NCBI GenBank assembly: GCA_903828955.1
Contig: CAIKOA010000014.1
Location: 6,359-70,358, forward strand
Length of the DNA: 64,000 nt
Direction: 5' to 3'
Source of the DNA: an uncultured Candidatus Micrarchaeota archaeon
GTDB taxonomy: Archaea; Micrarchaeota; Micrarchaeia; Anstonellales; Bilamarchaeaceae
Shown: piece after piece, positions 10,997-29,359 of the stretch
How positions within the stretch are numbered: position 1 is the first letter of the stretch
How the letters are laid out: the number at the start of each line of letters is the position of its first letter
Notes under the pieces: generated by a model
The model's database searches: none
Told to the model about the DNA's origin: nothing
What the model saw: only the letters and a program-made list of their open reading frames with translations
Translations under genes and position numbers: made by a program

Positions 10997-11049
10997 CTCT
11001 ACCAATCAATAATTGGAAATGTAGATATTATATGCGTGCCTTTTTTGCC

Positions 11050-12279
11050 TCAATCATAACTAAGCGCTTCAATTGCGGGAATCTTTGATGCACTCCTTGC
11101 AGGAATCGCACCCGCAATAATTCCCACAACGGTTGCAAAAAGCACTGCTCCAGCCGCAACTTCGATTTTCAGGTACGGGGTGAGGCTTACAATATGCGGG
11201 ATAATCTGTATCACAATGATCCCGAGCAATAGCCCCGCAAGCCCCCCGATCATCCCGATCATTCCCGCTTCCACAATAAAGAGGGCAAGCACCTGCGTGG
11301 AAGTTGCGCCTATTGATTTCAGTATCCCGATTTCCTTGGTGCGCTCAATAACGGTCATGAACATGGTATTTGCAATCCCTATTCCGCCAACAAGCGCGGA
11401 GATCAGCCCTATCAGGAGCAGGGCCATCGTAAGAGTATCCGATATCGAACTTATGTTTTGCCTTGTTGAAGTAGATGCGGTGGTTACCGTGAAATCCGGA
11501 TTGTCCACATCCACTCCGCGCGCAAGCGCAAGTGTTTGGGTTATCGCAGTGCCGACAGTGCTGCTGTCAACTCCGGCCTTCACCTTGACCGTTATCTGCC
11601 CGATTTCGTTTTTCCCGAGGTCTTTCCCAAAAAGGCTGTCCTTCTCCGAATAGGGGACGTATATCGCCCTGTCCCCTCCTCCGGACATCGTGTTCCCGCT
11701 TTGTGCAAGGATTCCGATTACTCTGTATTTTTCCCCATTTATCAGGATGTAGCTGTTTATCCCCACCTTATCCGACCCGAACATCCCGTTTGCAACCCCA
11801 TAACCGATTACCGCAACCTTCTGGTCTGAATTCTGCAGATATCTTCCCTCACTAAGCGCATAGGTTTCCGGGAACAATGCGAACAGGTTGTCCTCAACCG
11901 CGGTAATGCTGGCCTTATATTCCTTCTTTGCAAACCCTATCGTTTCCCTCTCAGAAACAGACATCGCAGTCCCAACAATGTCCATTATTCCCTTTATCCG
12001 CGTCGCATCCTTCTCGTGCAGCTTCCCATAATCCGCGCCCGTCTCCACATCCGGCCCCATCGCGCGCCCGCCCCCCGGAGTAATCAGTATGGTGTCAGCG
12101 CCAAGGGAATTCAGGTTTGAATTTATCTGCTGCCCAACCCCTTCCCCTATCGAAACAAGAACGACAATCGTGGCTATCCCTAACAATATTCCGATAACGG
12201 TAAGCCAGGAGCGCAGCTTCCTCCTTTTCAGGTTCTGCAGGCAATACCCAAAAACATCCCTTGAGCGCATATCACTCAT
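11050..12279 (-). CDS. ABC transporter permease, MacB/FtsX family
   Basis: N-terminal TM, large periplasmic-type domain and C-terminal FtsX-like 3-TM bundle. It lies in an operon with the ATPase at 15393..16145. Confidence 0.8.
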   Translation of the reverse strand: MSDMRSRDVFGYCLQNLKRRKLRSWLTVIGILLGIATIVVLVSIGEGVGQQINSNLNSLGADTILITPGGGRAMGPDVETGADYGKLHEKDATRIKGIMDIVGTAMSVSERETIGFAKKEYKASITAVEDNLFALFPETYALSEGRYLQNSDQKVAVIGYGVANGMFGSDKVGINSYILINGEKYRVIGILAQSGNTMSGGGDRAIYVPYSEKDSLFGKDLGKNEIGQITVKVKAGVDSSTVGTAITQTLALARGVDVDNPDFTVTTASTSTRQNISSISDTLTMALLLIGLISALVGGIGIANTMFMTVIERTKEIGILKSIGATSTQVLALFIVEAGMIGMIGGLAGLLLGIIVIQIIPHIVSLTPYLKIEVAAGAVLFATVVGIIAGAIPARSASKIPAIEALSYD

Positions 12280-13492
12280 ACCTCAGTGCTTCCACGGCGG
12301 GCACCTTTGTTGCCTGCTCGGCCGGGTAAGTCCCTGCAACTATCCCTATTCCAACCGAAACCGCAAACGAAAGCCCCACCATGAACGCGGAGATTAATCC
12401 TGCGTATCCGAAAGTGGCAGCAATCTGGATGAAGACCCATCCTGCGGCTATCCCGAGAATTCCTCCGGAAAGGCCGATCATTGCGGATTCCATCAGGAAC
12501 ATGTTCCTTATCTGGGAAGAGGTTGCCCCAATCGCCTTCAGCACCCCTATTTCCCTTGTTCGCTCAAGCACGCTCATGAACATCGTATTCGAAATCCCTA
12601 TCCCGCCAACGATGAGTGAGATTGCGGAAACAAGCCCAAGAAATATTGTAAGAGTCCCCATGATCGCCGCTCTTTGCTCTTCCATGAATGTCGGGCTCAT
12701 CACCATGAAATCCTGGTCATCCGCGGTTACCTGGTGCGCCTGCTGGAGCGTCCATGTTATGTCCTCGGTCACCGTGGTGAGGTTGTATCCCTTTGCCATC
12801 TTCGCCTGGATGCGCGTCACTTCGTCATTTGCAAGGTCGGTTCCTGCAAGGGCGCGCGCATCATCTATAGGGAGATATGCCCTGCCCCCAAAGCCTCCTC
12901 CCCCGAACCCTCCGTTGTCTTCTGCGAGTATCCCAATTACGCGGTATGCCTTCCCGTCCAGATCTATCCTTGAATTCACCTTGACCTTTCCATTGAAGGT
13001 CCGGTCAACCACGCTGCTGCTAAGGAGGACGACCCCCCTGTCGCCTTTTTCAAGGTACCTGCCTTCGGAAAGGTTTCCAAGGGTGTTTGTTTTCAGGTAA
13101 GTTTCGGTGTCAACTCCAGTTATGGTCATTTTGGAAGTTTTGTCCCGATAAGCCACATCCACACTTACGCTGATAGAGGGCGAAACTGTCTCCACCCCAT
13201 TTACGCCCTTCACTATTTCAACATCCTTCATGTAGAGCTTGTCTGCGGATGAAGACCCTCCCTCTTCCCCAGGCGGCCCCCGCATTGCAGTACCGCCCGG
13301 GCTTATCGTGATTATGTCTGAACCCAGTTGGCTCAGCCTTGCATCTATGCTGGAACTGAGGCCGTCCACAAGCCCCACCAACAATATCACTGAGGAGATG
13401 CCGACCACTATCCCAAGCAGAGTAAGCCAGGTGCGCAGCCCCCTATGCCGCAGGTGGTGAAGCGCATATCCGAAAAGGTCCGGGAAGTTCAT
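12272..13492 (-). CDS. ABC transporter permease, MacB/FtsX family (paralog)
   Basis: Paralog of the adjacent permease. The start is placed at MNFPDLFGYALHHL by alignment with its partner; the ORF is open to 13552. Confidence 0.75.
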   Translation of the reverse strand: MNFPDLFGYALHHLRHRGLRTWLTLLGIVVGISSVILLVGLVDGLSSSIDARLSQLGSDIITISPGGTAMRGPPGEEGGSSSADKLYMKDVEIVKGVNGVETVSPSISVSVDVAYRDKTSKMTITGVDTETYLKTNTLGNLSEGRYLEKGDRGVVLLSSSVVDRTFNGKVKVNSRIDLDGKAYRVIGILAEDNGGFGGGGFGGRAYLPIDDARALAGTDLANDEVTRIQAKMAKGYNLTTVTEDITWTLQQAHQVTADDQDFMVMSPTFMEEQRAAIMGTLTIFLGLVSAISLIVGGIGISNTMFMSVLERTREIGVLKAIGATSSQIRNMFLMESAMIGLSGGILGIAAGWVFIQIAATFGYAGLISAFMVGLSFAVSVGIGIVAGTYPAEQATKVPAVEALRYE

Positions 13493-13573
13493 TTTATTTC
13501 CTCCACCTGAACCATCCGTAGATGGCATTGATGGGGGTAAATTCCCCTCCAAGGGCCATCACATCATATTCAG

Positions 13574-13834
13574 TCATTGCTTCTTACCTTGCTTCCTCAG
13601 GTCAAACCACCATATTAACACTGCGAGGATTGCAAGCCCGATTCCAATCTCCAATAGCGGCAGCCCTCCGCCGCCCATCGCGCCCCTTGAAAAACCTCCG
13701 GTTGCATTGCTGGTTGCATTGCTGCCCCCGCCAGAATACCCTCCTCTTCCGCCCATCGGCCCGAGCAGCGCAAAGGAAAGCCCCAATGCCGCAATTCCAA
13801 TAAGTAATCCTTTTATGTTTGCAAAACGTTTCAT
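13574..13834 (-). CDS. Small two-TM membrane protein with Gly-rich loops
   Basis: ORF track. Hydrophobic N- and C-terminal segments flank GGRGGYSGGG; it overlaps the upstream gene by 4 nt. Confidence 0.45.
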   Translation of the reverse strand: MKRFANIKGLLIGIAALGLSFALLGPMGGRGGYSGGGSNATSNATGGFSRGAMGGGGLPLLEIGIGLAILAVLIWWFDLRKQGKKQ

Positions 13835-15360
13835 TTTCTCACCTCAACAACCTGCTTCTTCCCTCCCTTCCATCTCTTCCAGAGCAGGTATGCCGCTCCA
13901 CCCACAACAACGGTGCCCGCAATTACCAGGTAGTTCAGCCCGGAATTCCGCTGCGTATCCGAAGTCATTGCCCTCCCGCTTATCGTAATGGGTATCTGCC
14001 TCTTCACAGTCATCCATTTCCCTGACGCGTCCCTGAAAGAGACCGTCACGTTTGCAGGGTATTCCCCTGCCCGCACCTGGTTCACCGTAATGTCATACTG
14101 CACGCTGCTAAAATCGTCGCTGTCCAGCTCCCCAATGAACTGCTCGGGCTGGATCGTGTCAAGCGTAAATGCCTCGCTATCTACCCGTACCGTAGTTCCC
14201 TGGATGTTGTAATTGCCGAGGTTGGAAACGGTTACTGAAAGCGTGTTGTCCGCACCTGCGGTGAGCGGGTTGGTTTTTGCTTCCAGGTAAATTCCGACAC
14301 TTGAATCCGAAACAATCTCTACAGGAAGTGTTACGGTTGCCACCTGGTTTTCCCCGTTCTCTTCCCAGCTCAGCTCAACTGCTATGTTGTGCGTCCCGGG
14401 CTCAACATTGGCCTTTACCGGCACCGAGAAAGTTTTTGCTTCCCCGCCCGCGAGGTCACCTACCTTATATTCGTTCATCCCGATGAGGTAGGTGTCGTTT
14501 GTACCAAAGGAGAACCTCAGGTTGGATATGTCGTTTCCCTCGTTTGTGAGGTTGAGCGAGAGCCGGTCATTTTGCCCGCTCACTATGGGCGCGTTCTGGA
14601 CGAATACGAAATTCCCTTCGGATTTCTTTATCGTGACCGGAACTTCGACCACCTCGCTAATCGTTGTCCCGAGTTCATTCTGGTAAGAAAGCTGGAACTG
14701 CAGCTTGGTTGCCCCTTCCTTTGCCGCCCTTGCATCAATCGTTGCAGGGACCGTTGCCGATGCCGAAGCGTCAACAGAATCCACGTAGAGCTTGCCGGAA
14801 TTGAGGAAGCCCACATCCGGGTTCAGGAGGGTCACCTCTACTCTCCTTGCGCTGCCCCCGTCGTTTTTCAGGGAGAAGTTCACTTCGCTGATGTCTTCGA
14901 TGCTGTCCTTGGAAAGCGAGATGGACAGTACCGGCTGCTTCACGATCTGCACCGGAATTGAGGCGCTCTTCTCAAAGGTTTCTGTTTTGGAAGCAAGCTG
15001 GTTGTTGCTGTCCAGATAGTAACTCTCACCCGTTCCGGTTGCGCGCACTTCCACGGTATAAAATCCGTTGGATATGTTTTCAGATGCTGCAAAAGGGAGC
15101 GAGATTACCGTGGAAGCCCCGGATTCCAGGTCCCCGACCGCGAAGGTGCGGTCTATCCCCAATGCCTCTACGGATGAAACGGCTATGGCCACGCTTCTTA
15201 CGGTGTCGGTCTGCACTCCGGTATTCGTTATTGTAATCTGCAGCACCCCGGAGCCTCCCGGCTCGACCACTTCAGGGGAAAGTGTATACTTGTCTATGCT
15301 TAAGCCCGCAAAGCAAAATCCAAACAGCAAAAGCGCCATGAGCGCATACTTCATATCCAT
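13831..15360 (-). CDS. Secreted CARDB-like/COG1361 repeat protein with C-terminal TM anchor (partner of archaeal MacB-type ABC systems)
   Basis: Signal peptide, repeated beta-rich modules (..VSVTVSNLGNYNIQG.., ..LQITITNTG..) and a C-terminal hydrophobic helix plus KRWKGGKK tail. Confidence 0.65.
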   Translation of the reverse strand: MDMKYALMALLLFGFCFAGLSIDKYTLSPEVVEPGGSGVLQITITNTGVQTDTVRSVAIAVSSVEALGIDRTFAVGDLESGASTVISLPFAASENISNGFYTVEVRATGTGESYYLDSNNQLASKTETFEKSASIPVQIVKQPVLSISLSKDSIEDISEVNFSLKNDGGSARRVEVTLLNPDVGFLNSGKLYVDSVDASASATVPATIDARAAKEGATKLQFQLSYQNELGTTISEVVEVPVTIKKSEGNFVFVQNAPIVSGQNDRLSLNLTNEGNDISNLRFSFGTNDTYLIGMNEYKVGDLAGGEAKTFSVPVKANVEPGTHNIAVELSWEENGENQVATVTLPVEIVSDSSVGIYLEAKTNPLTAGADNTLSVTVSNLGNYNIQGTTVRVDSEAFTLDTIQPEQFIGELDSDDFSSVQYDITVNQVRAGEYPANVTVSFRDASGKWMTVKRQIPITISGRAMTSDTQRNSGLNYLVIAGTVVVGGAAYLLWKRWKGGKKQVVEVRK

Positions 15361-15392
15361 TTTTTCACCATTTTTATCATGTTTCTTCTTAC

Positions 15393-16145
15393 CTATCTTT
15401 TCTTATATCTCTTTTCATGGGGGGCATGGTCCCCTCCGTGCCATTTTAGCACGGTGCCGTCTTTAATGTGGACGCGCTCCTCAGCATGCTCCGCAACTTC
15501 CGCGTCGTGGGTAACAATCACGAGCGTCCTTCCCTCTTCGTGGAGAGTGTCGAACAGCCTGACCACATCGTCCCCCGTCTTTGAGTCCAGGTTCCCGGTG
15601 GGCTCGTCTGCAAGTATCAATTCCGGGTCGTTCACGAGTGCGCGTGCCATCGCAACCCTCTGCCTTTGCCCTCCGGAGAGTTCGCTCGGAAGATGGTCGA
15701 GCCGGTCGCCCATGTTCAGGCCCCTGAGAATTTCCGCGGCTTTCTCCTCGCGCTCTTTTTTCGGGGTTCCCTGTATCATCATCGGGAGCGCCACATTCTC
15801 CACGGCAGTAAGCGAAGGCACAAGGTTGAATACCTGGAAAACGAAGCCGATTTTCATCCCCCGCACCCGCGCAAGCTGGTCTGATGACATCAAATTGACG
15901 TCTGCCCCATCAATCAGCACCTGGCCCTGCGTAGGGACATCAAGGAGCCCCAGCATATGCAGAAGGGTGCTCTTCCCGCTTCCGCTCGGGCCGATTATGC
16001 TCATGTAGTCGCCATGGTGTATAGTCAGGGTGAAGTCGCGCAATGCGTGTATCTTTTCCTCGCCCATCTTGTAGGTCTTCCAGACCTGCTTGAGCTCCAG
16101 GATGGGCAGGTCTTTTTCCTTTTCCATTTTTTCACTTAATTTCAT
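15393..16145 (-). CDS. ABC transporter ATP-binding protein (MacB/LolD-type)
   Basis: Walker A GPSGSGKST, signature LSGGQRQR, Walker B ILADEPTGNLD. Confidence 0.92.
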   Translation of the reverse strand: MKLSEKMEKEKDLPILELKQVWKTYKMGEEKIHALRDFTLTIHHGDYMSIIGPSGSGKSTLLHMLGLLDVPTQGQVLIDGADVNLMSSDQLARVRGMKIGFVFQVFNLVPSLTAVENVALPMMIQGTPKKEREEKAAEILRGLNMGDRLDHLPSELSGGQRQRVAMARALVNDPELILADEPTGNLDSKTGDDVVRLFDTLHEEGRTLVIVTHDAEVAEHAEERVHIKDGTVLKWHGGDHAPHEKRYKKR

Positions 16146-16192
16146 TTACTTAAAAACACCTAAAAAATAAAATTAAAAGGATGGCGGGCAGC

Positions 16193-17005
16193 TTACTCGG
16201 TGTTGGGCACGAACTCCCCCTTGTGCCCGCCCATCCCCTTTGCTTGCATTCCTAAGCATTCCGCAGGAATAAGCGCATCAATCTGCGCCTTCAATTCATC
16301 TGCTTTTGCACTGTCCCCTGCATCCTTCGCAGTTTTCATCTGCCCCCTAAGGCTGGAAACCGCATCCTTATTGCCTTGCATTGCCTGCCTGCAAGTATCG
16401 TTCATTTGCGGAGGCATTCCTCCCATTCCAGGGGGTTGCCCTCCCTTCATCCCCATACGCACCCCGCACCCTTCAGGCATTAGTTGCTTGAGCTGCCCGC
16501 GCAATTCCCTTACGGTATCATTATCGCCGGATTCCATCGCGGTTTTTATCTGCCCCTGAAGTTGCGCAATCTGGTCCTTATTCTCCTCAAACGCCGCGGT
16601 GCAGTTCGCTTTCTTTTCCCCCATCAGGCTCTGCACAGTCTCCACCAGCTTGTCCTGGAGAACAACCGCCTCAACCCAGTTGCCGAGCTTTTGCGCATTG
16701 AATATCTGCGCCTTCAAATCGAACATTTGCGGAGTCGCAAAATCCATTTTCTTTCCGCCAAGCCCATATTCGTCATGTAGCTTCATTGCGGTTTCGTAAT
16801 CCCCCTCATGCGTTGCCTGCATGAACTCTGCGCGCGTTTCCACTGAAACATTCTGCATATTATCCGTTCCCTGCGGGCCCCCATCATGCCCAGCTCCCAT
16901 TCCGAACAGGTTTCCGAGTCCAAAATCCATTCCAAAACCCCCCCATGCAAAACTAGTGCCGAAAAGGCAGAGGATTGCAAGAAGCGCCTTATTTTTTCCG
17001 TTCAT
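16193..17005 (-). CDS. Secreted protein with internally repeated ~60-aa modules each carrying two Cys
   Basis: Signal peptide ALLAILCLFGTSFAWG and repeated N(C/D)T..C...KD....LRGQ(L/M)K...(PEG/PAE)C modules. Confidence 0.5.
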   Translation of the reverse strand: MNGKNKALLAILCLFGTSFAWGGFGMDFGLGNLFGMGAGHDGGPQGTDNMQNVSVETRAEFMQATHEGDYETAMKLHDEYGLGGKKMDFATPQMFDLKAQIFNAQKLGNWVEAVVLQDKLVETVQSLMGEKKANCTAAFEENKDQIAQLQGQIKTAMESGDNDTVRELRGQLKQLMPEGCGVRMGMKGGQPPGMGGMPPQMNDTCRQAMQGNKDAVSSLRGQMKTAKDAGDSAKADELKAQIDALIPAECLGMQAKGMGGHKGEFVPNTE

Positions 17006-17223
17006 TTGCCCCACCAAACTGAACGTCCGGGGCTTTTTATAAATACTTTTTCCAGAATAAGCCCCAAATTTACCCCAAATTACGCCGTAATAAGCTCTAA
17101 TTTCTGCCCTTTTTGAAAATTTTGCAGACTATCCGCTAAATCGGAAAAGGAAAAAGCCGCAGTTTTTTCAGTTCCCGCCCGGGGCGGAAATCCCAGAAAG
17201 GGAACCGATTCTGCGCGCTTAAG

Positions 17224-17694
17224 CTACCTTGAACTTACCCACGCAAGTATTGCGAGCGAAACGGTTGCAAAGAGCGGAGGGATTATCGAGAAAAGCCCCG
17301 GCCTCCCGAAAACCCCGAACAGCATGTGCAGGAGCGGATTTGCGCTTATCGCAAACAGCATGAACGAAATCACTGCGAGCAACACCCCGAGGGTGAAGCT
17401 GCTCCGGAGTTCCAGGTAGTCCTTCAGGTACACGAATATGAGGAATATGGAAATTATCAGCATTATCGTGGAAAGCGCCATGTCGATGTACATGTAGCTC
17501 GCCATAATCTCCCTCAAATCCTCGCGGTCCTCAAGCCCCTGAAAAGGAGTGAGCATGTTCGCAAGGAAGAATATCCCTATGCAGAAGGCGACTATCACCA
17601 GGGTAAAGCCTGCCGCCTTAAAACTGTAATTATTTCTTTTTTCCTTTTTTTCCGCTTTTTCGTTTTTCATTTTCATCACCATTTCCTTTTCCAT
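17224..17694 (-). CDS. Membrane protein, hypothetical
   Basis: ORF track; 4 hydrophobic helices. It overlaps the upstream wHTH gene by ~65 nt. Confidence 0.45.
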   Translation of the reverse strand: MEKEMVMKMKNEKAEKKEKRNNYSFKAAGFTLVIVAFCIGIFFLANMLTPFQGLEDREDLREIMASYMYIDMALSTIMLIISIFLIFVYLKDYLELRSSFTLGVLLAVISFMLFAISANPLLHMLFGVFGRPGLFSIIPPLFATVSLAILAWVSSR

Positions 17695-17971
17695 CCAAAA
17701 CTTCCTTCAGGAACTCGTTTTCTTCCCAGTCCGGGCTTATGAAAAGGACCTGCCCATAGCCTTGCTTCGGGGTATATACAATTCCATTCTCCACAAGCAT
17801 CTCTATGTGCCCCTGCACCGTCTTGTAATCCAGCGAAAGCGCTAGGGCGAGCTTCCTCAGATTCATGGGCTTATCGCTGAGCGTTTTCAGAATACGAATC
17901 CGCGTCGGCCCCCCCTTTGATGCGCTAAGCATCCAGTAGAGAAGCCGTGTTTTGGAATCCATCTGCAACAA
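17630..17971 (-). CDS. Winged-helix (ArsR/MarR-like) transcriptional regulator with a Lys-rich tail
   Basis: RIRILKTLSDKPMNLRKLALALSLDYKTVQGHIEMLVENGIV is a typical wHTH. Confidence 0.6.
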   Translation of the reverse strand: MLQMDSKTRLLYWMLSASKGGPTRIRILKTLSDKPMNLRKLALALSLDYKTVQGHIEMLVENGIVYTPKQGYGQVLFISPDWEENEFLKEVLDGKGNGDENEKRKSGKKGKKK

Positions 17972-18060
17972 TTAGTTCCGGCAGAATTTAAAAAGTGCGA
18001 ACATGCCATTGATAAAAAAACCTAAGAACTCACGAACCATTTTCCGGGATTATTGGTCGT

Positions 18061-18858
18061 TTGGCGCGCCCGCCGTTTTCCCCTTCTTTCGCAAGATTTA
18101 TATCCTTTCCCCGCGCACTCCTATCCGTGGAAGAGGAAAAGCAAAAGCCGAAGAACAGGCCGGTCCTTTTCGAACTGGACATAAACCACCTCTGCTGGTT
18201 CTGCGACATCACCGACAGGAACCCGGACGCCACTATTGTTTCCACCCTATCGCAAGTTGAAGGGGACCGGATAACCAACGTGATCCAGCTCAATTCCCCG
18301 GACCCGAAAAAAGACATTGAAAGGATGAAGGCGCACCCTCTCGTCAAAAGCGTGCAGGTCCTCACGATGTCCCAGAGCAGCGCTCTCCTGGTGGTGGTTT
18401 CCAGCTACAAGGCAATGACCTACAAACTCCTCCACCATACCAATGTGAAAATGCTGGAATCCCCCGTAACCCGGGCAGGGGTGGATTCCGAAATCCTCAT
18501 GGCGCCTTCCGACAAGGAGATGCGCGAACTGATAACCCGCTTCTCCGAGCACAAGGATTATGCAGATGTGAAACTCAAGAAGAAGAAGTACCTCAATCCA
18601 GAGGACGCGGTTTCGCTCAGCGCCTTCCGCACAAGCGGCTTCTTCGACCTGCAGTCCGCAAAGCAGCTCATCACTCCAAAGCAGCTGGAAATTTTCCAGC
18701 TTGCCTGCGACTATGGCTACTACGATATCCCGAAGAAAATCTCGATTGAGGAGCTCGCGGAAAAGACCGGGCTTTCCCCGTCCACCCTTGCGGAGCATTT
18801 GCGCAAAGCCGAGGCAAAACTCCTTCCCGTTTTCTGGAAAGTCATGAAAAAGCTCTAG
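18061..18858 (+). CDS. HTH_10 (bacterio-opsin activator/Bat-type) transcriptional regulator with N-terminal sensor-like domain
   Basis: C-terminal LTPKQLEIFQLACDYGYYDIPKKISIEELAEKTGLSPSTLAEHLRKAE is a canonical HTH_10. The precise start is uncertain. Confidence 0.65.
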   Translation: MARPPFSPSFARFISFPRALLSVEEEKQKPKNRPVLFELDINHLCWFCDITDRNPDATIVSTLSQVEGDRITNVIQLNSPDPKKDIERMKAHPLVKSVQVLTMSQSSALLVVVSSYKAMTYKLLHHTNVKMLESPVTRAGVDSEILMAPSDKEMRELITRFSEHKDYADVKLKKKKYLNPEDAVSLSAFRTSGFFDLQSAKQLITPKQLEIFQLACDYGYYDIPKKISIEELAEKTGLSPSTLAEHLRKAEAKLLPVFWKVMKKL

Positions 18859-18871
18859 AACTCCGGTAAAA

Positions 18872-18885
18872 CCGCTCTAGAGCGG
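18872..18885. promoter_or_regulatory. Perfect 14-bp palindrome CCGCTCTAGAGCGG, 38 nt upstream of the ATG of gene 18924; putative operator upstream of the TATA-like ACATATACAAG
   Basis: Seen directly. The same palindrome and the same 38-nt spacing recur at 19435-19448. Confidence 0.6.
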
Positions 18886-18923
18886 CATTACTAACATATA
18901 CAAGTTCACATAAATGTTATTCC

Positions 18924-19424
18924 ATGTACGAAATTCCGCTTAGGGGCAGAGGGGCAAAAGCGCTCAAATCCTCGCTCAGGGATGGCCTTCCCAATCAGTT
19001 TTATCCACTTGTTGACCGGATAGTAGGATGTACCAGGTTTTCATTAACGACATTGCGCATTCTTTCTGCATTCTTTGATGACATGAGGCCCAGCCCAGAA
19101 TGCCCCCCTGAAAAAATAATGAGGTGGAAGCGGGACACAATTGACTTTTTTAACTTTTTTCAACAGAAATGGGCTCGCTTGCGTACGGACGCGTTGTTAG
19201 CCCCTCTTAAAGATTATGCCAAGCATGTGGGCCTTGAAGATTATGCTGAGCAGGTAAGCAAGGGGGATAGGGAATCTCAACTCCAGCTCCTGCTTTTGGC
19301 TGCGCTCAAGGATTATGCCGAGTATGTCGGAGAGAGAGACAAGGAATTCCGGTTCCAGCTCCTGCTTTTGGCTGCGAGCATCGAAGCCGCAATCCCTAAA
19401 GAGAAAGCCCGGAGCGATCCCTGA
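18924..19424 (+). CDS. Hypothetical protein with tandem internal repeats (LKDYA(K/E)(H/Y)VG..D..... QLLLLAA)
   Basis: ORF track. It is preceded by the palindromic operator and is the first gene of the co-regulated module. Confidence 0.55.
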   Translation: MYEIPLRGRGAKALKSSLRDGLPNQFYPLVDRIVGCTRFSLTTLRILSAFFDDMRPSPECPPEKIMRWKRDTIDFFNFFQQKWARLRTDALLAPLKDYAKHVGLEDYAEQVSKGDRESQLQLLLLAALKDYAEYVGERDKEFRFQLLLLAASIEAAIPKEKARSDP

Positions 19425-19434
19425 TTGCCAGCAC

Positions 19435-19448
19435 CCGCTCTAGAGCGG
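19435..19448. promoter_or_regulatory. Second copy of palindrome CCGCTCTAGAGCGG, 38 nt upstream of the ATG at 19487, followed by CACTAAGAATATCTATAAGTT
   Basis: Seen directly. The downstream 38 nt align with the copy at 18886-18923 (CA.TA...A.AT.TA.AAGTT...A.AA.T.TTAT.CC). Confidence 0.6.
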
Positions 19449-19486
19449 CACTAAGAATATCTATAAGTTATTACAAGTATTTATCC

Positions 19487-21094
19487 ATGAATGACTCAGG
19501 CTCACAAGCATACGATTCAGTGAACAAGGCATGGAAATCTACCACCCGCGTCCTCTTGGGGGAAGAGATGGGCGAAATCCGCGAATACAAGGATTGGCTC
19601 CAGGAATACGGGCGCGCACCCAGGCATGAGAAGTCTTCGCTTTCAGGCAAGCCCGTCACACTTTCCCTGAACGAATACGGAAGCAACGCAAAGTTTATCG
19701 CTTTCAACGAAGTCGATTTCCAAAAGCGCTTTGCGCCCCTCAACATAAACGAGATTAAGGACATCGATTCCATAGTCGAGGCCCTGCAGGAGCGCTTCTG
19801 CTACGCAGGAGGGCTCACGCTCGGGAATTCCCGGTTCGTTGAAGGCAGCTCCGACATCCACAACTGCACTTACATCCTGGACTCCCACAACATAGTGGAT
19901 TCAAGCTACATCGCATGCACCTACATGGCGCGGGATTCTGAGATGCTTTTCGGATGCGACGCGATTGGGGAAGCAACGCATTCAATCCGCGGGCTGGAAT
20001 TATGGAAGAGCACCCGCTGCTTCGACGTTTTCGAAGTGAGGATGTCTTCCGACTGCTACTACTCGTTCAATCTGGAGAGCTGCCAGAACTGCTTCTTCTC
20101 CTTCAACCTCAAGGCGAAGAACTACAGTATCGGCAACCTGGAGCTGGGAAGGGATGCATACCTGAAAAGGAAGGAGGCGCTTCTCGAGGAAATCCGGGAC
20201 TCCCTTTCCAAAAAGAAGAAAGTTGCCGGAATCCTTGACATATTGCTCAATGCAAAAGACCGGAGCGCGGAAATCAAGGAAGAATTCGCGGAGGTTTCCA
20301 GGAAGGCCGAATACCACAAGGAGTTCTCGGATATGTCCGGAATCGACAAGGTTTTCTCCGGAACCTCCCAATTGCTTCTTGGGAAGGCGCTCGGCCCGAT
20401 CAAGGCATACGAGCCGTGGCTATCAAGGCACGTGCTCATGCCGGAATTCTACAAATCCGCAATAAGCGGGAAGCAGGCTGTGCTTACCAGCTACTCCAAA
20501 TTCGGGAGTTTCCCGAGAAACCGGCTGGTTGCCCTTGAGGAGGCGCCCCTTCTCTCGTGCCTGAAACTCAGCCAAAAGGAATGCGATTCCATTTCGATTT
20601 CATCGGCTCCTGAATACATCGGGAAGCTCGCTTACTCGACCGGGGATGCGGACATCCAGAACGCCCGGATGGTCGATTGCTGCATGATGGGATTTTCCTC
20701 CAACTGCTACAAGTGCACAGTGGCTCCGGATGTGAAGAATTCCGGGTGCTCGTTCTGGCCGCGGGCGTCCGAAAGCATATTCGGCTGCCATTCCAGCCAC
20801 GAATCCAAGTTCGTCATAAACGGGTATTTCTCGAGCAAGATCTCCCGCGCCTTCGAAGTGGATTTGTGCAGGGACTGCTCCGATATTTACTTCTCGCACA
20901 ACTGCGAGGCGATGCAGGATGCGATGTTCTGCTTCAACGCAAAGAACCTGAAGAAGGCGATAGGGAACGTGCAGTACCCGATAGAGGAATACAAGCGGTT
21001 CAAGTCCTCCCTTCTGGAGCAGATTTCCGGGGAGCTTGAGAAAACCAAATCCCTCCATTTCGACATCTATAGCATAGGCTCCGCAGAGGCGTAA
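19487..21094 (+). CDS. Uncharacterised Cys-rich protein, paralog A (two internally duplicated Cys-rich modules separated by a charged coiled-coil linker)
   Basis: ORF track; no recognisable family. Conserved modules end in NC..C..(F/M)(F/C)(S/F)FN.K(A/N)...IGN. Its stop lies 2 nt before the start of paralog B. Confidence 0.7.
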   Translation: MNDSGSQAYDSVNKAWKSTTRVLLGEEMGEIREYKDWLQEYGRAPRHEKSSLSGKPVTLSLNEYGSNAKFIAFNEVDFQKRFAPLNINEIKDIDSIVEALQERFCYAGGLTLGNSRFVEGSSDIHNCTYILDSHNIVDSSYIACTYMARDSEMLFGCDAIGEATHSIRGLELWKSTRCFDVFEVRMSSDCYYSFNLESCQNCFFSFNLKAKNYSIGNLELGRDAYLKRKEALLEEIRDSLSKKKKVAGILDILLNAKDRSAEIKEEFAEVSRKAEYHKEFSDMSGIDKVFSGTSQLLLGKALGPIKAYEPWLSRHVLMPEFYKSAISGKQAVLTSYSKFGSFPRNRLVALEEAPLLSCLKLSQKECDSISISSAPEYIGKLAYSTGDADIQNARMVDCCMMGFSSNCYKCTVAPDVKNSGCSFWPRASESIFGCHSSHESKFVINGYFSSKISRAFEVDLCRDCSDIYFSHNCEAMQDAMFCFNAKNLKKAIGNVQYPIEEYKRFKSSLLEQISGELEKTKSLHFDIYSIGSAEA

Positions 21095-21096
21095 AC

Positions 21097-22695
21097 ATGA
21101 ATTCCCAGAACTACGAAGTCCTGAATAGGGCGTGGAAATCCACCTGCAAGGTGCTCTTTGGCGCGGAAATCGGCGACATGAAGGAATACGAGCCCTGGCT
21201 CCTTTCCGGAGTGGACGCCCCCATGAAGAAGAAATCCGCGGTTTCCGGCAAAGATGTTTATGTGGGAATTGAGTTCTACAAGGATGAAAGCAGGTTCATA
21301 GGGCTGGATGAGATTGATTTCAATAAGAAATTCCAGCCCCTCAACATAAACGAGGTTAAAGACATCGACAGCATCGTTGAATCATTGCAGGAAAGGTTCC
21401 TCTACACCGGAAACATCGTCCTTGGAAATTCCCAATTCGTAGAAAAAAGCTCGAACGTAATCGATAGCTCATACATTTACAATGCAACCGAGCTCGTTGA
21501 TGCGAAATACATCGCCCACCTCACCTGCGCCCCTGAAAGCGAATACTGCTTTGGCTCGAATGGCGCAGGGGTGAGCAAGCAGTGCATCCACATATACGAA
21601 ACATTCGACTGCAACCGCTGCTTAGAAATCTGGAATTCGAGAAGCTGCGCAGACGGCTACTTCACCTACAACTGCGACGGGTGCAGGGAAACCTTCTTCA
21701 CGTTCAATTCCTACGGAAAAAAGTACTCTGTCGGAAATCTCGAACTTGACAAGGACAAGTACCTCCAATTGAAGAAGAAACTAATAGAAGAAATCCGGGA
21801 AGAGCTCGTTTCCAAAAAACAGCTCAAATCTCTAATGGACATCATTTCCTCGGCAAAGGAATACAGGAAAGAGAACGAGGAGCTCAAGCAGATTCTGAAG
21901 GGGCACAAGTTCGAAGAGCCCCGCGCAAACAAGGAACTGGTCGAAAAGGAGTTTTCGGAAACCGCCGCGATTCTTTTCGGAAAGCCGTTGCACGGAATCG
22001 ACAACTATTCCAGATGGCTGAGCCGCAACATCTGGGAGCGCAATGAATGCAAGTCCGCCCTCACCGGGAGAAGGACCGTGGTTGTGGATTACTGCAACCT
22101 TGGAAGGATTCCGGAGCCGCGCCTGATCCGTAAAGACGAGTGGGAAGTGGTAAAAGAGAAAATGAAATTGAGCGCAGAGGACGTTGATTCCCTCACCCTG
22201 AAGAATGCCGGGGAAACAATAGGGAAAATCTCCTACCTTCCCTTCGACTACAATACGAACAGCACGAACATGATTGATTGCACGACCACCCTCAATTCCG
22301 CGGACTGTTATCTTGTGTTGCCTGCGATATTCTCAAAGAAATCCGGGGTTTGCACCTGGATAAGGCATTCCTCGGATGTATTCGGCTGCTGCGCGGGATT
22401 CCATTCCTCCTTCTGCATGAAAATCAACTACTCCAAGAAGATGAACCGCTGTTTCGAAACCGATAATTCCAGCGGATGCTCCGGGGGCTACTTCCTGCAC
22501 AACTGCGAGAACGTGAACGATTCCATGTTCTGCTTCAATATGAAGAACCTCCGGAACGCAATCGGGAACGCCCCTCTCCAGCTGGATAAATACAAGGCGG
22601 TAAAGTCTTCCCTCCTTGAGCAGATGCATTCCGAACTCGAGAGAAACAAGGAGCTCAAATGGGACATTTACAACATCGGATGCCTTTCAGAGTAG
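21097..22695 (+). CDS. Uncharacterised Cys-rich protein, paralog B (tandem duplicate of 19487..21094)
   Basis: It is clearly alignable to paralog A along its full length (MN.Q.Y..LN.AWKST..VL.G.E.G...EY..WL..., LNINE(I/V)KDIDSIVE(A/S)LQERF, C-terminal SSLLEQ...ELE..K.L..DIY.IG). Confidence 0.7.
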   Translation: MNSQNYEVLNRAWKSTCKVLFGAEIGDMKEYEPWLLSGVDAPMKKKSAVSGKDVYVGIEFYKDESRFIGLDEIDFNKKFQPLNINEVKDIDSIVESLQERFLYTGNIVLGNSQFVEKSSNVIDSSYIYNATELVDAKYIAHLTCAPESEYCFGSNGAGVSKQCIHIYETFDCNRCLEIWNSRSCADGYFTYNCDGCRETFFTFNSYGKKYSVGNLELDKDKYLQLKKKLIEEIREELVSKKQLKSLMDIISSAKEYRKENEELKQILKGHKFEEPRANKELVEKEFSETAAILFGKPLHGIDNYSRWLSRNIWERNECKSALTGRRTVVVDYCNLGRIPEPRLIRKDEWEVVKEKMKLSAEDVDSLTLKNAGETIGKISYLPFDYNTNSTNMIDCTTTLNSADCYLVLPAIFSKKSGVCTWIRHSSDVFGCCAGFHSSFCMKINYSKKMNRCFETDNSSGCSGGYFLHNCENVNDSMFCFNMKNLRNAIGNAPLQLDKYKAVKSSLLEQMHSELERNKELKWDIYNIGCLSE

Positions 22696-24690
22696 TATTT
22701 GCCCCCTCTTCATTTTTTTTACCGGGCTCTTCTCTTCCTTCTCAAGCTTGCTTGCGCTCGCCTTGTCAATTATGGATTCAGGAAGGCTGAGCCTTTCCTT
22801 GAATGGAGAAGCAACCTCTCCTCCATCTCCTCCATCTGGATCCTCACCAGGCCCGTCTCCCGGCCCCTTTCCCTTTTCTCCAGAAGGCGAAGGAGGGGGT
22901 TCCGGAGGAACATAAACCGGAAGCGCATTCTCGTCGAACCCCCACTTCTTCATGTCCACAACCTTGAGTTTCATCGGAAGGAGGTAATTCACCCCATCGT
23001 AGAGCCTTGCAATGCACTCCCGCTGGTTGAGCCGGACAAACATCTCTTTCTTGGATTCCTCCAGCTCGGTCTGCCCGCGGTGCTTCTTGAAGTATTCCTC
23101 CAGCTTAATCTCCATCACCGAACTCAGGAGCGCCGCATCCTGCCGATTCAACTTGAACGCAACAATGTTCCTCACGTTCGAAACCATGCTATCCACGATC
23201 TCCTTGCTCAATTGGGAGAGGTACTGGCACGAGAAGTACGCGTATAGGTTGAACTTCCTGGTCTCGGAAAGGATGTCCCTTGCCACCTTGGTCTCAATCC
23301 TTGGGAACTCATCCATCACAAGTATGGTAGGCTTATCCATGAGCTTCCCGCTGATTGCAAGCAGGTACATCTGGTTTATGATCGCCCCGGAAAGGAAGCT
23401 TATCATCCTCCTTCCGAAGAACTTCGGGTCGAAGGACACAACCGTAATCCTGTTCTTCTGAATCAATTCCAGGAGGTTCTCCTGCTTCTTCTCCTTCCCA
23501 AGGTATAACTGGTATTCCCCGATGAAGTTCAATATCGGCAATATCGCGGTATTGAAGTGGTGTATGTAGATGTCATTGTACTCCTCATCGAAGAACCTCT
23601 TCACCTCATCGTTGTCGCACATGCTGACGAATTCCGCCTTTACCGTAGCATCCGTAAGCAAAGAGCTGATGTTCGTAAGTTCGAGCTTGTCTATTGAACT
23701 CAGGAGGTGCACCGCGTAGAACAGCACACGCTCCGAGTACTTGTTCTCCTGCCCAATCGAAGAGGCAAGCAATTGCGAAACCAGCTGCGTAAGCATCGGA
23801 GTCTTCTCCTTGCCCACATCCAGCGGCTCCACGAAATTGGTCACGAAGTTGACGAGCTTAGCCTTAGGGAAAAGGCGCACGAACTCTCCGTGCGGGTCGA
23901 TTATGAGTATCCTTGCCCCTTCCTTGTATTTCTGCTCAATCGCCTTCAACATGACGTATAACGCCTTGCTCTTTCCGGAACCCGAAGTTCCCACCACAAG
24001 GGTGTGCTGGAGAGAATCGAAATTATCCACTCCCATGCTAAAGCCGGTATCTTCGAAAACGGGAAAATTGGAGGTTGTCTGTATCCTTTTCGGCAGTGGG
24101 TCAAGCACCTCGATGTATACAGACGGGTTCTCCTCCAAATTTACCCTAAAAAACTTATGCGGCTCGGTAACCAATACCGCCCTTTTCCTGCCCTTCTCAT
24201 CCGTGGCTGACCCTACTGCCACAAAGCCCCCGAGAAACTTGGTGAAGCCCAGGTCGAGCTCCTCCATGTTTTCCTTGAGCATGAAATCCAGGAAATCGTA
24301 GCTGCCTCCCCCTATCTTATAGAACTTTGAGAGGGGCGTTCCCACCGCTTCCTGGAGGTCCATCTTCTTCGCATCCCCGAACCTGAAGGGGAAAACGAGC
24401 GCGGACTGGCTCTGGAGGTGCTTCCTCTCCTCTATGAAGAAGGATACGGTATTGTTCTTCCTCTTTACAATGAGCCTGAACGCATTCGGGGAAAACACCG
24501 AAGAAAAATCCAGGAACCCCAGAATAGGAACCCTGGGCTTTGCCATCTGGTTGAAGAAAGCCAGTATGTCCTCGGGCTCGACCTTCTCAGAATAGAGGAA
24601 CATCTCCCTTGCCGAGAGGGGCCCCCCAGTGAGGGTTTCATCCCTTGTAAGGGAAATCTTCATCCCGATTGGAAGCTTTATTTCTGCCAT
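22687..24690 (-). CDS. HerA/FtsK-superfamily P-loop ATPase (COG0433/DUF87-like) with C-terminal Pro/Gly/Asp-rich low-complexity tail
   Basis: Walker A VVGTSGSGKSKA, Walker B ILVMDEFPR. The ~230-aa N-terminal region may be a HAS-barrel. The 3' end overlaps paralog B convergently by 9 nt. Confidence 0.7.
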   Translation of the reverse strand: MAEIKLPIGMKISLTRDETLTGGPLSAREMFLYSEKVEPEDILAFFNQMAKPRVPILGFLDFSSVFSPNAFRLIVKRKNNTVSFFIEERKHLQSQSALVFPFRFGDAKKMDLQEAVGTPLSKFYKIGGGSYDFLDFMLKENMEELDLGFTKFLGGFVAVGSATDEKGRKRAVLVTEPHKFFRVNLEENPSVYIEVLDPLPKRIQTTSNFPVFEDTGFSMGVDNFDSLQHTLVVGTSGSGKSKALYVMLKAIEQKYKEGARILIIDPHGEFVRLFPKAKLVNFVTNFVEPLDVGKEKTPMLTQLVSQLLASSIGQENKYSERVLFYAVHLLSSIDKLELTNISSLLTDATVKAEFVSMCDNDEVKRFFDEEYNDIYIHHFNTAILPILNFIGEYQLYLGKEKKQENLLELIQKNRITVVSFDPKFFGRRMISFLSGAIINQMYLLAISGKLMDKPTILVMDEFPRIETKVARDILSETRKFNLYAYFSCQYLSQLSKEIVDSMVSNVRNIVAFKLNRQDAALLSSVMEIKLEEYFKKHRGQTELEESKKEMFVRLNQRECIARLYDGVNYLLPMKLKVVDMKKWGFDENALPVYVPPEPPPSPSGEKGKGPGDGPGEDPDGGDGGEVASPFKERLSLPESIIDKASASKLEKEEKSPVKKMKRGQILL

Positions 24691-24748
24691 TTTGACCCAC
24701 CTTTAAGCACAATCTATTACTAAGCGCCACTTGGATATATTCTTAGTG

Positions 24749-24762
24749 CCGGTGTAGAGCGG
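24749..24762. promoter_or_regulatory. Degenerate third copy of the palindrome (minus-strand reading CCGCTCTACACCGG) followed by CACTAAGAATATATCCAAG, ~58 nt upstream of the ATPase ATG at 24690
   Basis: Seen directly. The 3' half-site and downstream CACTAAGAATAT are identical to the 19435 copy. Confidence 0.5.
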
Positions 24763-24821
24763 TCTTTTGAAACTTCCACAAGCAAACATTTAAAAACACT
24801 ATCATTGATAATATATATTAT

Positions 24822-26420
24822 ATGTCCACCGAGGGAAGGAAACCAGGCATACCTTCGTTTTTGCTTTCACCCCCCAGCTGGAAGGCCGTCGGAAACACCC
24901 CCCTTATCAAGGTAAAAGAGCTTTGCGGGGCGTGCAACGGGGCGACCGTCTATGTGAAGGACGAGAGCAAGAACCGCTTCGGAACCTTCAAGGACAGGCG
25001 CTCGGCAGCCCTTTTTGAGCACTACAAGGACAAATCCGAGATCGTTTTCGTCCACATCACTTCCGGAAACTCCGGCTACAGCCTCGGGATGATGGCCGAG
25101 GAGGAGCGGAGAAGGACCAAAAAAGACATACGGGTAGTCAACATCATCGATAAGGGAACTCCGAAAACCATCCGCGAAAGGCTGGAATCATGTTCAAAGG
25201 TCGTTGAGATGGACCTCTCAAGCGGGCAGATGGGGCTTGATGAGCAGAGGGAGCTCGGGAGGTCCGCAGCGTCTTATGAGGGCCACCAGAGCAACATCGT
25301 CGGGGTGGAGGAATACCACATTGCAAACGGCTACAGCAACATACTGCGTGAGATTTATGCCGAAGGGATAAGGCCAAAATACGTCTTTTGCCCGGTCGGA
25401 AACGGGGAGCTCCTGGTTGAACTTGCGGATGTCGCAAAGGAATTGTGGGGTTACGACGCCCCATTAATCGTCGGAGTTACTATTCAGCAGAACATCCTGC
25501 ACCGCGCAGCGGACTTTGTCTCAAAAATAGGGAGGAGCATCGCAGACAAGCTCGTTGCCCCATACTCAATGTACAAGGAACTCGTGGAGGCCCGCGTGAA
25601 AGATGGAAGCGCGGAATTGATGAAGAAACACCCGAAAGAGGACGAAATCGCAAAGGAATACGAACGCCTCAACCGGATAGGCATAAATGTGGAGCCTTCC
25701 GCGGCGGTCGCCTTCTGGGGCGCAAAACACTACGAACTCACCCAAGACGATACAGTCGTAATCATTAATACTGGTAAGGGAGTTTACGACCCTTCCTCGC
25801 TCAATAAGGTCTGGAAGTACATGCTGAAGCCCAGATTGAAGAAGCTGGGGCTGGTTGCGGCAGGTGCGCTCCTCTCCCTAGGAATAGTGTTCGGAAACAA
25901 TCAATATGAAAAATACAAATCCCATGAGCACTTCAACCTTGCTACTCAGGTATCGCTTATTTCCGAAACCGGAGGCTTTTTCCGCACGGATGTGAAGAAA
26001 TTGCAAACATTGTGCATGAACATCCCGGATATGACTAAGGAGAGGTGCGGAGAAATTCGTTCCGCGTCCGACTTAACCGATAGGGAGCTCCAGTTCCTTA
26101 TCTACTGGGACGGGCTCAAAGATGACAATGCGAACATGGGGCTCCGCCTCATGGCAAGAGAGTGGTACCTCAAATATAATGGGCAGGGCCCGGATCGCCG
26201 CAAGGCTTGGATGCCATTAGATGATAACGAGCCGGAAGAATACGAAATGTACCCTGATGGTTCCATAAAACAGGCATCAAGAAAAACAACCTTTGATTTC
26301 ATGTCGGGCAGGGAAAGGCACGAATACACGTTTGGGCCAACTCCTCCCCCATCCATGACCGGCTACCCATGGGGCTCTGATACAGGCCCTGGCAATCCTG
26401 CTTCTGCCCCTAATAAGTAG
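24822..26420 (+). CDS. Fold-type II PLP-dependent enzyme domain (cysteine synthase/threonine synthase-like) fused to a TM segment and a ~170-aa C-terminal domain of unknown function
   Basis: GNTPLIKV and TFKDRRS (PLP lysine) motifs and ITSGNSGYSLG glycine loop. Then KLGLVAAGALLSLGIVFG as a TM helix, then an unrecognised domain. Confidence 0.65.
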   Translation: MSTEGRKPGIPSFLLSPPSWKAVGNTPLIKVKELCGACNGATVYVKDESKNRFGTFKDRRSAALFEHYKDKSEIVFVHITSGNSGYSLGMMAEEERRRTKKDIRVVNIIDKGTPKTIRERLESCSKVVEMDLSSGQMGLDEQRELGRSAASYEGHQSNIVGVEEYHIANGYSNILREIYAEGIRPKYVFCPVGNGELLVELADVAKELWGYDAPLIVGVTIQQNILHRAADFVSKIGRSIADKLVAPYSMYKELVEARVKDGSAELMKKHPKEDEIAKEYERLNRIGINVEPSAAVAFWGAKHYELTQDDTVVIINTGKGVYDPSSLNKVWKYMLKPRLKKLGLVAAGALLSLGIVFGNNQYEKYKSHEHFNLATQVSLISETGGFFRTDVKKLQTLCMNIPDMTKERCGEIRSASDLTDRELQFLIYWDGLKDDNANMGLRLMAREWYLKYNGQGPDRRKAWMPLDDNEPEEYEMYPDGSIKQASRKTTFDFMSGRERHEYTFGPTPPPSMTGYPWGSDTGPGNPASAPNK

Positions 26421-26536
26421 AAATATCGCCGAGGAGGTTGAGCGGATTTCTAAATAACAATTGAAGGGAACACCTAAGGGCTTTTGGGTGAACGTAAGCC
26501 TTTTGCCGTTAGCCTATGTTGGCCAAAAGGGTTCGA

Positions 26537-26621
26537 CGCCGAGGAGGAGATTTGAACTCCTAAGCCCCAGAGGGGCACCAGATCTCAAGTCTGGCGCGTT
26601 ACCGGATTCTGCCACCTCGGC
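26537..26621 (-). tRNA. tRNA-Ser (anticodon TGA), type II with long variable arm
   Basis: The reverse complement GCCGAGGTGGCAGAATCCGGTAACGCGCCAGACTTGAGATCTGGTGCCCCTCTGGGGCTTAGGAGTTCAAATCTCCTCCTCGGCG has a 7-bp acceptor stem, an anticodon arm CCAGA-CTTGAGA-TCTGG, a variable-arm hairpin GCCCC/GGGGC and a T-arm GGAGG-TTCAAAT-CCTCC. The D-stem pairing is weak in my reading. Confidence 0.8.
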
Positions 26622-26787
26622 ATAATATTTGGGATTGTTTAAGGGGAAAAAGAAATTATAAACCCTTACGAAGCAAACCTAAATTCTCTCTTAATTGATT
26701 CGAGCGTATGGGCCTTCCCTTCTTTGGGGCCCTTCTCTGCTCTCTTAAGGGATTTTTTTGTTTCTTCGGAGCTTTTTTCAGTTCTTC

Positions 26788-29100: not shown

Positions 29101-29359
29101 TCAACCCTTCAATTACCTTCATGTTACGCAGGTACGTATTCACAACCGCGCGCAATGCAACCGAATCAAGCGCTTCTGCAAAAACTTCCACAACGTTTCC
29201 GGAAGCCAAAGCCGAAACCTTGCACCGGCCACTCTCAGGCCCGCCCTTTCCCAATGCAATACGCGCATTCTCCGCAACAAGCGCGGAAGGGAATTCAAAG
29301 CGCAGCCTCGCGCTGCATTTCAAATAAAGCGCCTCAATCGGTCCCGATTTCCTTTGCAA
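29081..29359 (-). CDS. KEOPS subunit Pcc1-like protein (likely TTG start)
   Basis: RLRFEFPSALVAENARIAL and LRAVVNTYLRNMKV align with Pcc1. There is no ATG in frame, so the ORF track start is TTG. Confidence 0.5.
   Translation of the reverse strand: MQRKSGPIEALYLKCSARLRFEFPSALVAENARIALGKGGPESGRCKVSALASGNVVEVFAEALDSVALRAVVNTYLRNMKVIEGLNGEDDG

Follow-up and report, generated by a model that had tools for sequence, protein, structure and literature searches.

What is the function of a 14-bp palindrome that occurs twice, in identical form and at the same distance from a start codon, directly behind the gene of a putative archaeal regulator? The question is raised by a 64,000-nucleotide (nt) stretch of contig CAIKOA010000014.1 from an uncultured Candidatus Micrarchaeota archaeon (assembly GCA_903828955.1, positions 6,359 to 70,358; the whole stretch is called the window here). 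The regulator, which carries an HTH_10 domain and is called REG below, opens a gene cluster that goes on with a small open reading frame (ORF), orf166, two genes for cysteine-rich (Cys-rich) proteins, a convergent gene for a P-loop ATPase and a divergent gene for a pyridoxal 5'-phosphate (PLP) dependent enzyme of the PALP family. We consider it likely that the palindrome is the operator of REG (18127-18858), that it abuts the transcription factor B recognition element (BRE) and that its most probable effect is activation of the Cys-rich, orf166 and ATPase promoters. An element of this kind, a palindromic operator of a neighbouring regulator next to BRE and TATA box, is textbook; this example is new.

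A scan of the window returned the exact 14-mer, CCGCTCTAGAGCGG, at 18872-18885 (O1) and 19435-19448 (O2), in both cases 38 nt ahead of an ATG (18924 and 19487), as an earlier note on this DNA had described. The two regions are alike beyond the palindrome, with 73% identity over 60 nt. The half-degenerate third copy that had been reported before the ATPase gene was recovered at 24749-24762 (O3). On the minus strand it reads CCGCTCTACACCGG and then CACTAAGAATATATCC, has two mismatches to the 14-mer, one of them in the arms that are conserved in other genomes, and is together with its flank 85% complementary to the second copy over 34 nt. It lies 58 nt from the ATPase start codon (ATG 24690, minus strand), and AAAGGTGGG stands right before that codon. 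The cluster has only three promoter regions, and each contains one of these copies, two exact and one near.

Statistics confined to the window are mixed. Perfect palindromes of 14 nt numbered five against 4.7 expected, and in none of 300 Markov simulations did one such palindrome occur twice. The 14-mer at up to three mismatches gave four matches against 2.46 expected, which is near chance, and CCGCT-N4-AGCGG at up to one mismatch gave six against 2.29, a count reached by one of 100 shuffles. With counts so near chance, these loose scans were rejected as a definition of the regulon; their additional matches lie at 8448, 30441 and 53290. A further half-site, GCTCTAGA, which had been proposed at the stop codon of the regulator gene (18852-18859), was also discarded: the letters are present but coding (...K-L-stop), orthologues end in CTCTAA or CTTTGA, and conservation of the palindrome does not extend to its CTAG core. 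The decisive evidence is comparative.

For this comparison, loci (numbered L) were gathered through the Cys-rich protein family (76 Micrarchaeota loci), through homologues of the regulator (8) and through a DNA pattern (15). Motif counts cover the window and these fetched loci, in which the genes are crude ORF picks; the related DNA in which the motif recurs at two orthologous places amounts to about 1.1 Mb. In 957 kb of locus DNA together with positions 10001-30000 of the window, CCG[CT]T-N4-A[GA]CGG occurred 20 times against 2.7 expected. Sixteen of its 18 locus matches are in promoter position, despite an ORF coverage of about 93% in that DNA; five matches that the crude caller had placed 'inside' ORFs turned out to lie in spurious or over-extended ones, and two are truly intragenic. 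The motif stands directly 3' of the regulator stop codon in L006, L016, L023, L027, L029, L043, L044, L077 and L082, and farther off in L040. Orthologous ATPase promoters with the motif at the same place were found in 10 further loci and two metagenome contigs; the motif precedes the ATPase gene in L006, L010, L016, L025, L029, L030, L038/L072, L044 and L077, in degenerate form in L063, and also in L087 and L093, the two metagenome contigs. The motif appeared once more in loci that had been collected by way of the regulator only: before Cys-family genes and the ATPase gene in L077/L078, before a small membrane ORF and an aminotransferase operon in L081, and ahead of a membrane protein gene in L082. 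A metagenome scan with CCGCT-N4-AGCGGCWCWANNNATAT yielded 15 stretches and no new target classes. Two of the stretches were from Micrarchaeota, both of them ATPase promoters that keep the geometry of the others; the remaining 13 had no similarity to the cluster proteins and no promoter geometry, and were treated as background.

An ungapped alignment of 27 promoters, consisting of 16 'leaderless' ones from about a dozen genomes and 11 ATPase promoters, gave the consensus aAAn-CCGCT-nnnn-AGCGG-C(a/t)cTAGnn-ATAT(C/A)TA. Its central four nt vary freely (CTAG, CCAG, GCAG, CTAC, GTAT, CTTC) and the arms stay constant, which argues that selection acts on two half-sites and not on a restriction site or the loop of a hairpin. 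Judged by this alignment, the real site is CCGCT-N4-AGCGG, that is, two 5-bp inverted half-sites with their centres 9 bp apart. All 27 promoters have a TATA-like box at +9 to +18 past the palindrome, which agrees with the position just upstream of BRE and TATA box already noticed for the window. The palindrome ends 1-2 bp before the presumed BRE (6-7 bp) and 8 bp before the ATAT(C/A)TA box.

In the 16 leaderless promoters the ATG follows the palindrome at 37-39 nt, the centre of the box is about 26 nt before the A of the ATG, and a pyrimidine precedes this initiating A. The usual archaeal distance from TATA box to transcription start is also about 26 nt, and the mRNAs from these promoters, among them the ones behind O1 and O2 (P1 and P2), are therefore predicted to be leaderless. 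The 11 ATPase promoters share the identical palindrome-to-TATA offset and have their ATG at +45 to +67, so that leaders of some 7-29 nt would be expected, in many cases with GGTG; in the window, the ATPase promoter (P3) would give a leader of about 20 nt, in which a GGTGGG Shine-Dalgarno sequence follows the box. The earlier proposal of leaderless or short-leader transcripts agrees with these sequence-predicted starts and with the box and ATG spacing kept in the 16 promoters. Relative to the predicted start, and with BRE, TATA box and start all placed by sequence, the site would span about -54 to -41.

The boxes of the motif-bearing promoters are T-poor and non-canonical, in contrast to the T-rich canonical boxes (TTTTAAT, ATTTATAT, CATTTAAAAAC) of other window genes, REG and the PALP gene. 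Such a shared T-poor box is as expected for activator-dependent promoters. A T-rich TATA box (CTTTTAAT, ATTTTTATAC, ACATTTAAAAAC) precedes the ATG of many window genes by 25-33 nt, so leaderless mRNAs appear to be common in this genome; examples with CTTTTAAT or ATTTTTATAC lie upstream of 8495 (minus strand), 9727, 34911 and 44077 (minus strand).

The main argument for binding of the site by the adjacent HTH_10 protein comes from the co-variation of the two. Distant paralogues of the regulator (22-30% identical) are followed by perfect or near-perfect palindromes that also have a 4-nt spacer and have other arms, and three classes of palindrome track three classes of HTH_10 recognition helix. 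In class A, found in the window and about 10 loci, the helix S[PQ]ST[LFC]AE[HL]LRKAE goes with CCGCT-N4-AGCGG. Class B combines KRR[AT]LQENLRKAE with CTGAC-N4-GTCAG (L010, L038, L050 and L065; TGACC-ATGG-TCA in L063), and class C combines SRRS[LM]QERLRRAE with TTGGAC-N4-GTCCAA (L011, L024, L033, L036, L066 and L071; GGGCATATGCCC in L056). The recognition helix of REG is SPSTLAEHLRKAE, and its counterparts in the CTGAC-N4-GTCAG and TTGGAC-N4-GTCCAA classes are KRRALQENLRKAE and SRRSLQERLRRAE. In all classes the ATG of a Cys-family gene mostly follows the palindrome at 36-38 nt, and in the class-C loci L024 and L033 at 62-64 nt. Together with the conservation of the arms, the fixed spacing and the strength of the HTH_10 match (71 bits), this argues for the earlier assignment of the palindrome to the neighbouring regulator, which REG would then recognise through this helix.

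The HTH_10 match of REG is well above the Pfam cut-off (71 bits vs 23.1, E = 9e-20), and all 40 aligned homologues match as well. Fold matches of a structure model gave a sigma-r4/LuxR-like helix-turn-helix (HTH) plus an ACT/RAM/NikR-like sensor; the N-terminal part is covered by no Pfam family, and no solved structure for the HTH_10 fold turned up in the PDB by sequence or by fold. The domain search found none of the GAF, PAS or BAT sensor domains that are present in Bat proper. Residues that are invariant in the homologue alignment include His21, Cys23 and His70, and the natural reading would be a ligand- or metal-responsive dimeric regulator. As to its signal, PLP enzymes recur beside the regulator or behind the motif: the PALP enzyme, a class I/II aminotransferase in L081 and, adjoining REG in the motif-less locus L083, a class V aminotransferase. 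From this recurrence one may guess at an amino-acid or sulfur-related signal, which we regard as worth testing.

The reading frame that had been given to the regulator (18061..18858) needs correction, as the start is more likely GTG 18127 (243 aa) than TTG 18061: public gene calls have 243 aa, orthologues align from there, and a canonical TATA box lies at 18096-18103, about 27 nt ahead of it. Regulator orthologues carry TATTAATA or TTTATAA equally far from their starts, without a palindrome. Autoregulation of REG through the palindrome was accordingly rejected, as the region upstream of REG contained none, either in the window or in orthologues.

In the mechanism that we propose, REG would sense a small ligand or a metal through its N-terminal ACT/RAM-like domain and would bind as a dimer to the CCGCT and AGCGG arms next to the BRE; two 5-bp inverted arms separated by four free bp are a geometry that fits an HTH dimer. 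Bound REG would then most likely help TFB and TBP to occupy a weak core promoter. The targets would be orf166 through P1, the two Cys-rich beta-solenoid genes through P2 and the HerA-like ATPase through P3. Activation is the direction that we favour, by analogy, from the upstream position of the site adjoining the BRE (as for GvpE and Tar), the T-poor TATA box and the precedents of the HTH_10 family (Bat, NarO and DmsR).

The strongest competitor keeps the same regulator and the same site and makes REG a repressor, which would hinder TFB and TBP from its position at -54 to -41 for as long as no ligand releases it. Occlusion of core promoter elements is a common mode of repression among archaeal regulators, the 3' arm of the palindrome ends only 1-2 bp from the presumed BRE, and sensors of the ACT/RAM and NikR type, to which REG has fold matches, are often found in repressors. 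However, the site overlaps neither the TATA box nor the start, which is the usual position for an archaeal repressor, and the T-poor, non-canonical boxes of the target promoters are unlike those of other promoters in the window. Characterised HTH_10 proteins are moreover described as activators (PMC11218638), and sites directly upstream of the BRE activate in the case of GvpE and Tar (PMC2241852, PMC6737238). We therefore hold repression to be unlikely.

A second alternative accepts a real operator and assigns it to another factor, for example the ArsR/HVO_A0114-like winged-helix protein encoded divergently from REG (17630-17971). Its gene and that of a DUF8036 partner do adjoin REG in L023, L006 and L081 as in the window, but the protein is absent from most loci with the motif, the pair being missing from the fetched DNA of L029, L044, L077, L082, L016, L027 and L030, and the class of palindrome tracks the recognition helix of the HTH_10 protein, which makes this binder very improbable. 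Least probable of all is that no protein binds and that the palindrome is an RNA hairpin or terminator, a restriction or methylation site (TCTAGA) or the leftover of a local promoter duplication: O1 does lie 13 nt after a stop codon, the 73% identity of the P1 and P2 regions over 60 nt could reflect duplication and 14-nt palindromes are no more numerous in the window than expected by chance. Yet the stem has only 5 bp and no T-run, the terminator scan was empty at 18872, 19435 and 24749, and no gene precedes the ATPase copy on its strand. Orthologues keep the arms and not the TCTAGA core, and genomes whose regulators are only 40-80% identical keep the fixed distances between motif, TATA box and ATG, which a recent duplication could not explain; both terminator and restriction site were thus rejected.

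Several observations nevertheless weigh against REG as an activator acting through this operator. The class-A regulators of L083 and L084 (52-53% identical) have no motif nearby. In L079 the site after REG is degenerate (CCATTCTTATACGG), and in this low-GC genome the ATPase site (14359-14580, minus strand) has a spacer of 12 nt and not 4 (CCGCTAAACCATTGTAGAGCGG). The ATPase promoters of L010, L025 and L038 carry the class-A motif and their nearest regulator is of class B, so that a class-A regulator would have to act from elsewhere; one is located about 10 kb away in the L010/L040 genome, and none was seen for L025 and L038. The loci were mostly gathered by similarity of the Cys-rich proteins, which biases the targets that become visible. 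Finally, a position adjoining the BRE is possibly also compatible with repression by blocking TFB.

Table 1. The regulator, its candidate operators and promoter boxes, and the genes of the cluster (window coordinates)
Feature	Coordinates	Strand	Description
REG promoter, canonical TATA box	18096..18103	+	ATTTATAT; about 24-31 nt before GTG 18127
REG	18127..18858	+	243 aa; N-terminal tandem ACT/RAM-like sensor, C-terminal HTH_10 (sigma-70 region-4-like)
Candidate operator O1	18872..18885	strandless	CCGCT-CTAG-AGCGG; 13 nt past REG stop, 38 nt ahead of orf166 ATG
TATA-like box of P1	18894..18903	+	ACATATACAA; +9 to +18 after O1; predicted start at or beside ATG 18924
orf166	18924..19424	+	small ORF with internal repeat, under O1
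Candidate operator O2	19435..19448	strandless	CCGCT-CTAG-AGCGG; 38 nt ahead of ATG of first Cys-rich gene
TATA-like box of P2	19457..19466	+	ATATCTATAA; +9 to +18 after O2; consensus ATAT(C/A)TA
Cys-rich protein	19487..21094	+	535 aa; two beta-solenoid domains; multicopy family
Cys-rich paralogue	21097..22695	+	532 aa; 41% identical; 2-nt gap to 535-aa gene
P-loop ATPase, HerA/FtsK/VirB4 superfamily	22687..24690	-	667 aa; convergent with Cys-rich operon
TATA-like box of P3 (ATPase)	24731..24740	-	ATATATCCAA; +9 to +18 after O3
Candidate operator O3	24749..24762	strandless	minus strand CCGCT-CTAC-ACCGG; one arm mismatch; divergent ATPase/PALP intergenic region
PLP-dependent (PALP) enzyme	24822..26420	+	membrane-anchored C-terminal part; divergent from ATPase

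The features of the locus are listed in Table 1. The order of the cluster is widely kept, with a regulator, one to nine Cys-rich genes, a convergent ATPase gene and a divergent PALP gene. The ORF orf166 has no homologue in the 76 loci, belongs to no family and is lineage-specific; other genomes have unrelated small membrane ORFs at its place, likewise behind the motif, and orf166 may be a young gene. At 19197-19376 it contains a 66-nt direct repeat (two copies, 76% identity) and a 35-nt pair, with repeated ...LKDYAxxVG...QLLLLAA... segments in the protein. In L081 (12239-17637) a class-A motif precedes a 120-aa membrane ORF and a class I/II aminotransferase operon with two Cys-rich genes; radical-SAM and methyltransferase genes follow this operon, and no HerA-like ATPase is nearby.

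The two Cys-rich genes of the window are probably co-transcribed. Their products had no match in Pfam, NCBIfam or PADLOC. The family comprises 428 matches at E<=1e-3, the named homologues among the 120 matches listed are all from Micrarchaeota, a DPANN lineage in which the names of homologues place the window as well, and no relatives were found in IMG/VR. Its members have sizes of about 525 aa (two beta-solenoid domains) and about 257 aa and occur in several clusters per genome; tandem arrays reach nine paralogues (L040 5445-14788, L072 1-9326, L030 4677-9369).

The ATPase is the conserved cluster partner in 27 loci. Its P-loop region matches DUF87 (47 bits, cut-off 23.2) and TrwB_AAD_bind (37 bits, cut-off 20.5), and no named equivalog (HerA, CedD, VirB4 or VirD4) matches it over its full length: the best, CedD, scored 33.9 bits against a cut-off of 600, and the NCBIfam matches span only residues of about 217-294. 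Its PADLOC matches are likewise mostly confined to the P-loop, beyond which PADLOC gave no defence-system match for the cluster. The tail of the protein is of low complexity and rich in Pro, Gly, Asp and Glu. The second Cys-rich gene (plus strand) and the ATPase gene (minus strand) share 9 nt at their convergent 3' ends (22687-22695), and the junction is also tight in orthologous loci.

Many genomes keep the divergent ATPase/PALP pair beside their Cys-rich arrays. The PALP gene is preceded by a canonical TATA box of its own (ACATTTAAAAAC; conserved as AACATTTA(A/T)AAAC), whose distance from the palindrome varies between 19 and 50 nt. Control of this gene by the same site was judged unlikely, since the distance of the site to the gene's own TATA box varies. 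A mobile-element or viral origin of the cluster was rejected in view of the missing relatives in IMG/VR.

Divergent from REG, at 17224-17971 (minus strand), are the ArsR/HVO_A0114-like winged-helix gene and the gene of its DUF8036 membrane protein. Farther upstream lie genes for a CARDB surface protein (13831-15360), an ABC ATPase (15393-16145) and two MacB/FtsX-like permeases (11050-13552), all on the minus strand, and such neighbours recur in L079 and L080. A tRNA-Ser(TGA) gene (26535-26622, minus strand) is located just past the PALP gene and a tRNA-Asn(GTT) gene (756-830, minus strand) near the start of the window; neither shows signs of an integrated element. An ORF of more than 2059 aa (57821-64000, minus strand) runs off the end of the window.

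As far as the literature was searched, transcription control in the DPANN archaea is experimentally unexplored, and no paper was found that describes the module of Cys-rich, ATPase and PALP genes. The conserved 'dark matter' genes of the DPANN archaea likewise lack handles. The locus offers a candidate regulator-operator pair whose half-sites, spacing and promoter geometry are defined and which could be tested cheaply, and the two further paralogous pairs provide a natural specificity-swap set for the HTH_10 fold. The site also ties together an unannotated multicopy module of beta-solenoid Cys-rich proteins, a HerA-like ATPase and a PLP enzyme, and the promoter geometry suggests that many Micrarchaeota mRNAs are leaderless. 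A much bolder picture, which we consider rather doubtful, is that of a regulon confined so far to Micrarchaeota, in which ligand-sensing HTH_10 paralogues with co-evolved palindromes switch on arrays of as many as nine Cys-rich beta-solenoid proteins and a HerA/VirB4-like ATPase, which may form an undescribed ATP-driven assembly, export or host-contact machine of these obligate episymbionts. If this were true, the arrays of paralogues would supply variable parts, and the regulators would couple their expression to a host- or metabolite-derived signal.

Among known systems, the closest by protein family are Bat, NarO and DmsR of the haloarchaea, which share with REG the HTH_10 domain, a regulator gene beside its targets and a site upstream of the TATA box; promoters of the NarO/DmsR type reportedly contain short inverted repeats. 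They differ in host (Halobacteria vs DPANN Micrarchaeota), in the sequence of the site and in their targets, which in the present case have no assigned function. REG further lacks GAF, PAS and BAT domains and has instead a tandem ACT/RAM-like sensor with the invariant His21, Cys23 and His70. The characterised members are described as activators (PMC11218638) that respond to oxygen or redox state (PMC11218638, PMC2253796). The HTH of REG also resembles bacterial sigma-70 region 4 and the LuxR/GerE type, but it is joined to a sensor and would act at archaeal TBP/TFB promoters, not as a sigma factor.

In the position of its site, the system compares best with archaeal upstream activator sites (GvpE, Tar, Ptr2 and Bat): like these, the palindrome lies immediately upstream of the presumed BRE and TATA box, and at a fixed, conserved distance. 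GvpE requires an upstream activating sequence (UAS) that directly adjoins the BRE and whose distance cannot be altered (PMC2241852). Like the palindrome, the UAS has two conserved blocks with four non-conserved nt between them, is BRE-adjacent and lies in a divergent intergenic region (PMC2241852); GvpE, however, is a bZIP-like protein with a direct 8+4+8 UAS, whereas the site described here is a 5+4+5 palindrome next to an HTH_10 gene, and only one of the two divergent promoters, that of the ATPase and not that of PALP, keeps a fixed distance to it. Tar (TK0271) of Thermococcus kodakarensis activates in vitro from the palindrome TGGACA-N8-TGTCCA upstream of BRE and TATA box, and its palindrome likewise precedes several operons of one regulon (PMC6737238). 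Tar is an unrelated protein (MarR-like has been suggested) with a spacer of 8 nt and not 4 and with amino-acid biosynthesis genes as targets, but its half-site resembles that of the class-C palindrome of the Micrarchaeota, TTGGAC-N4-GTCCAA.

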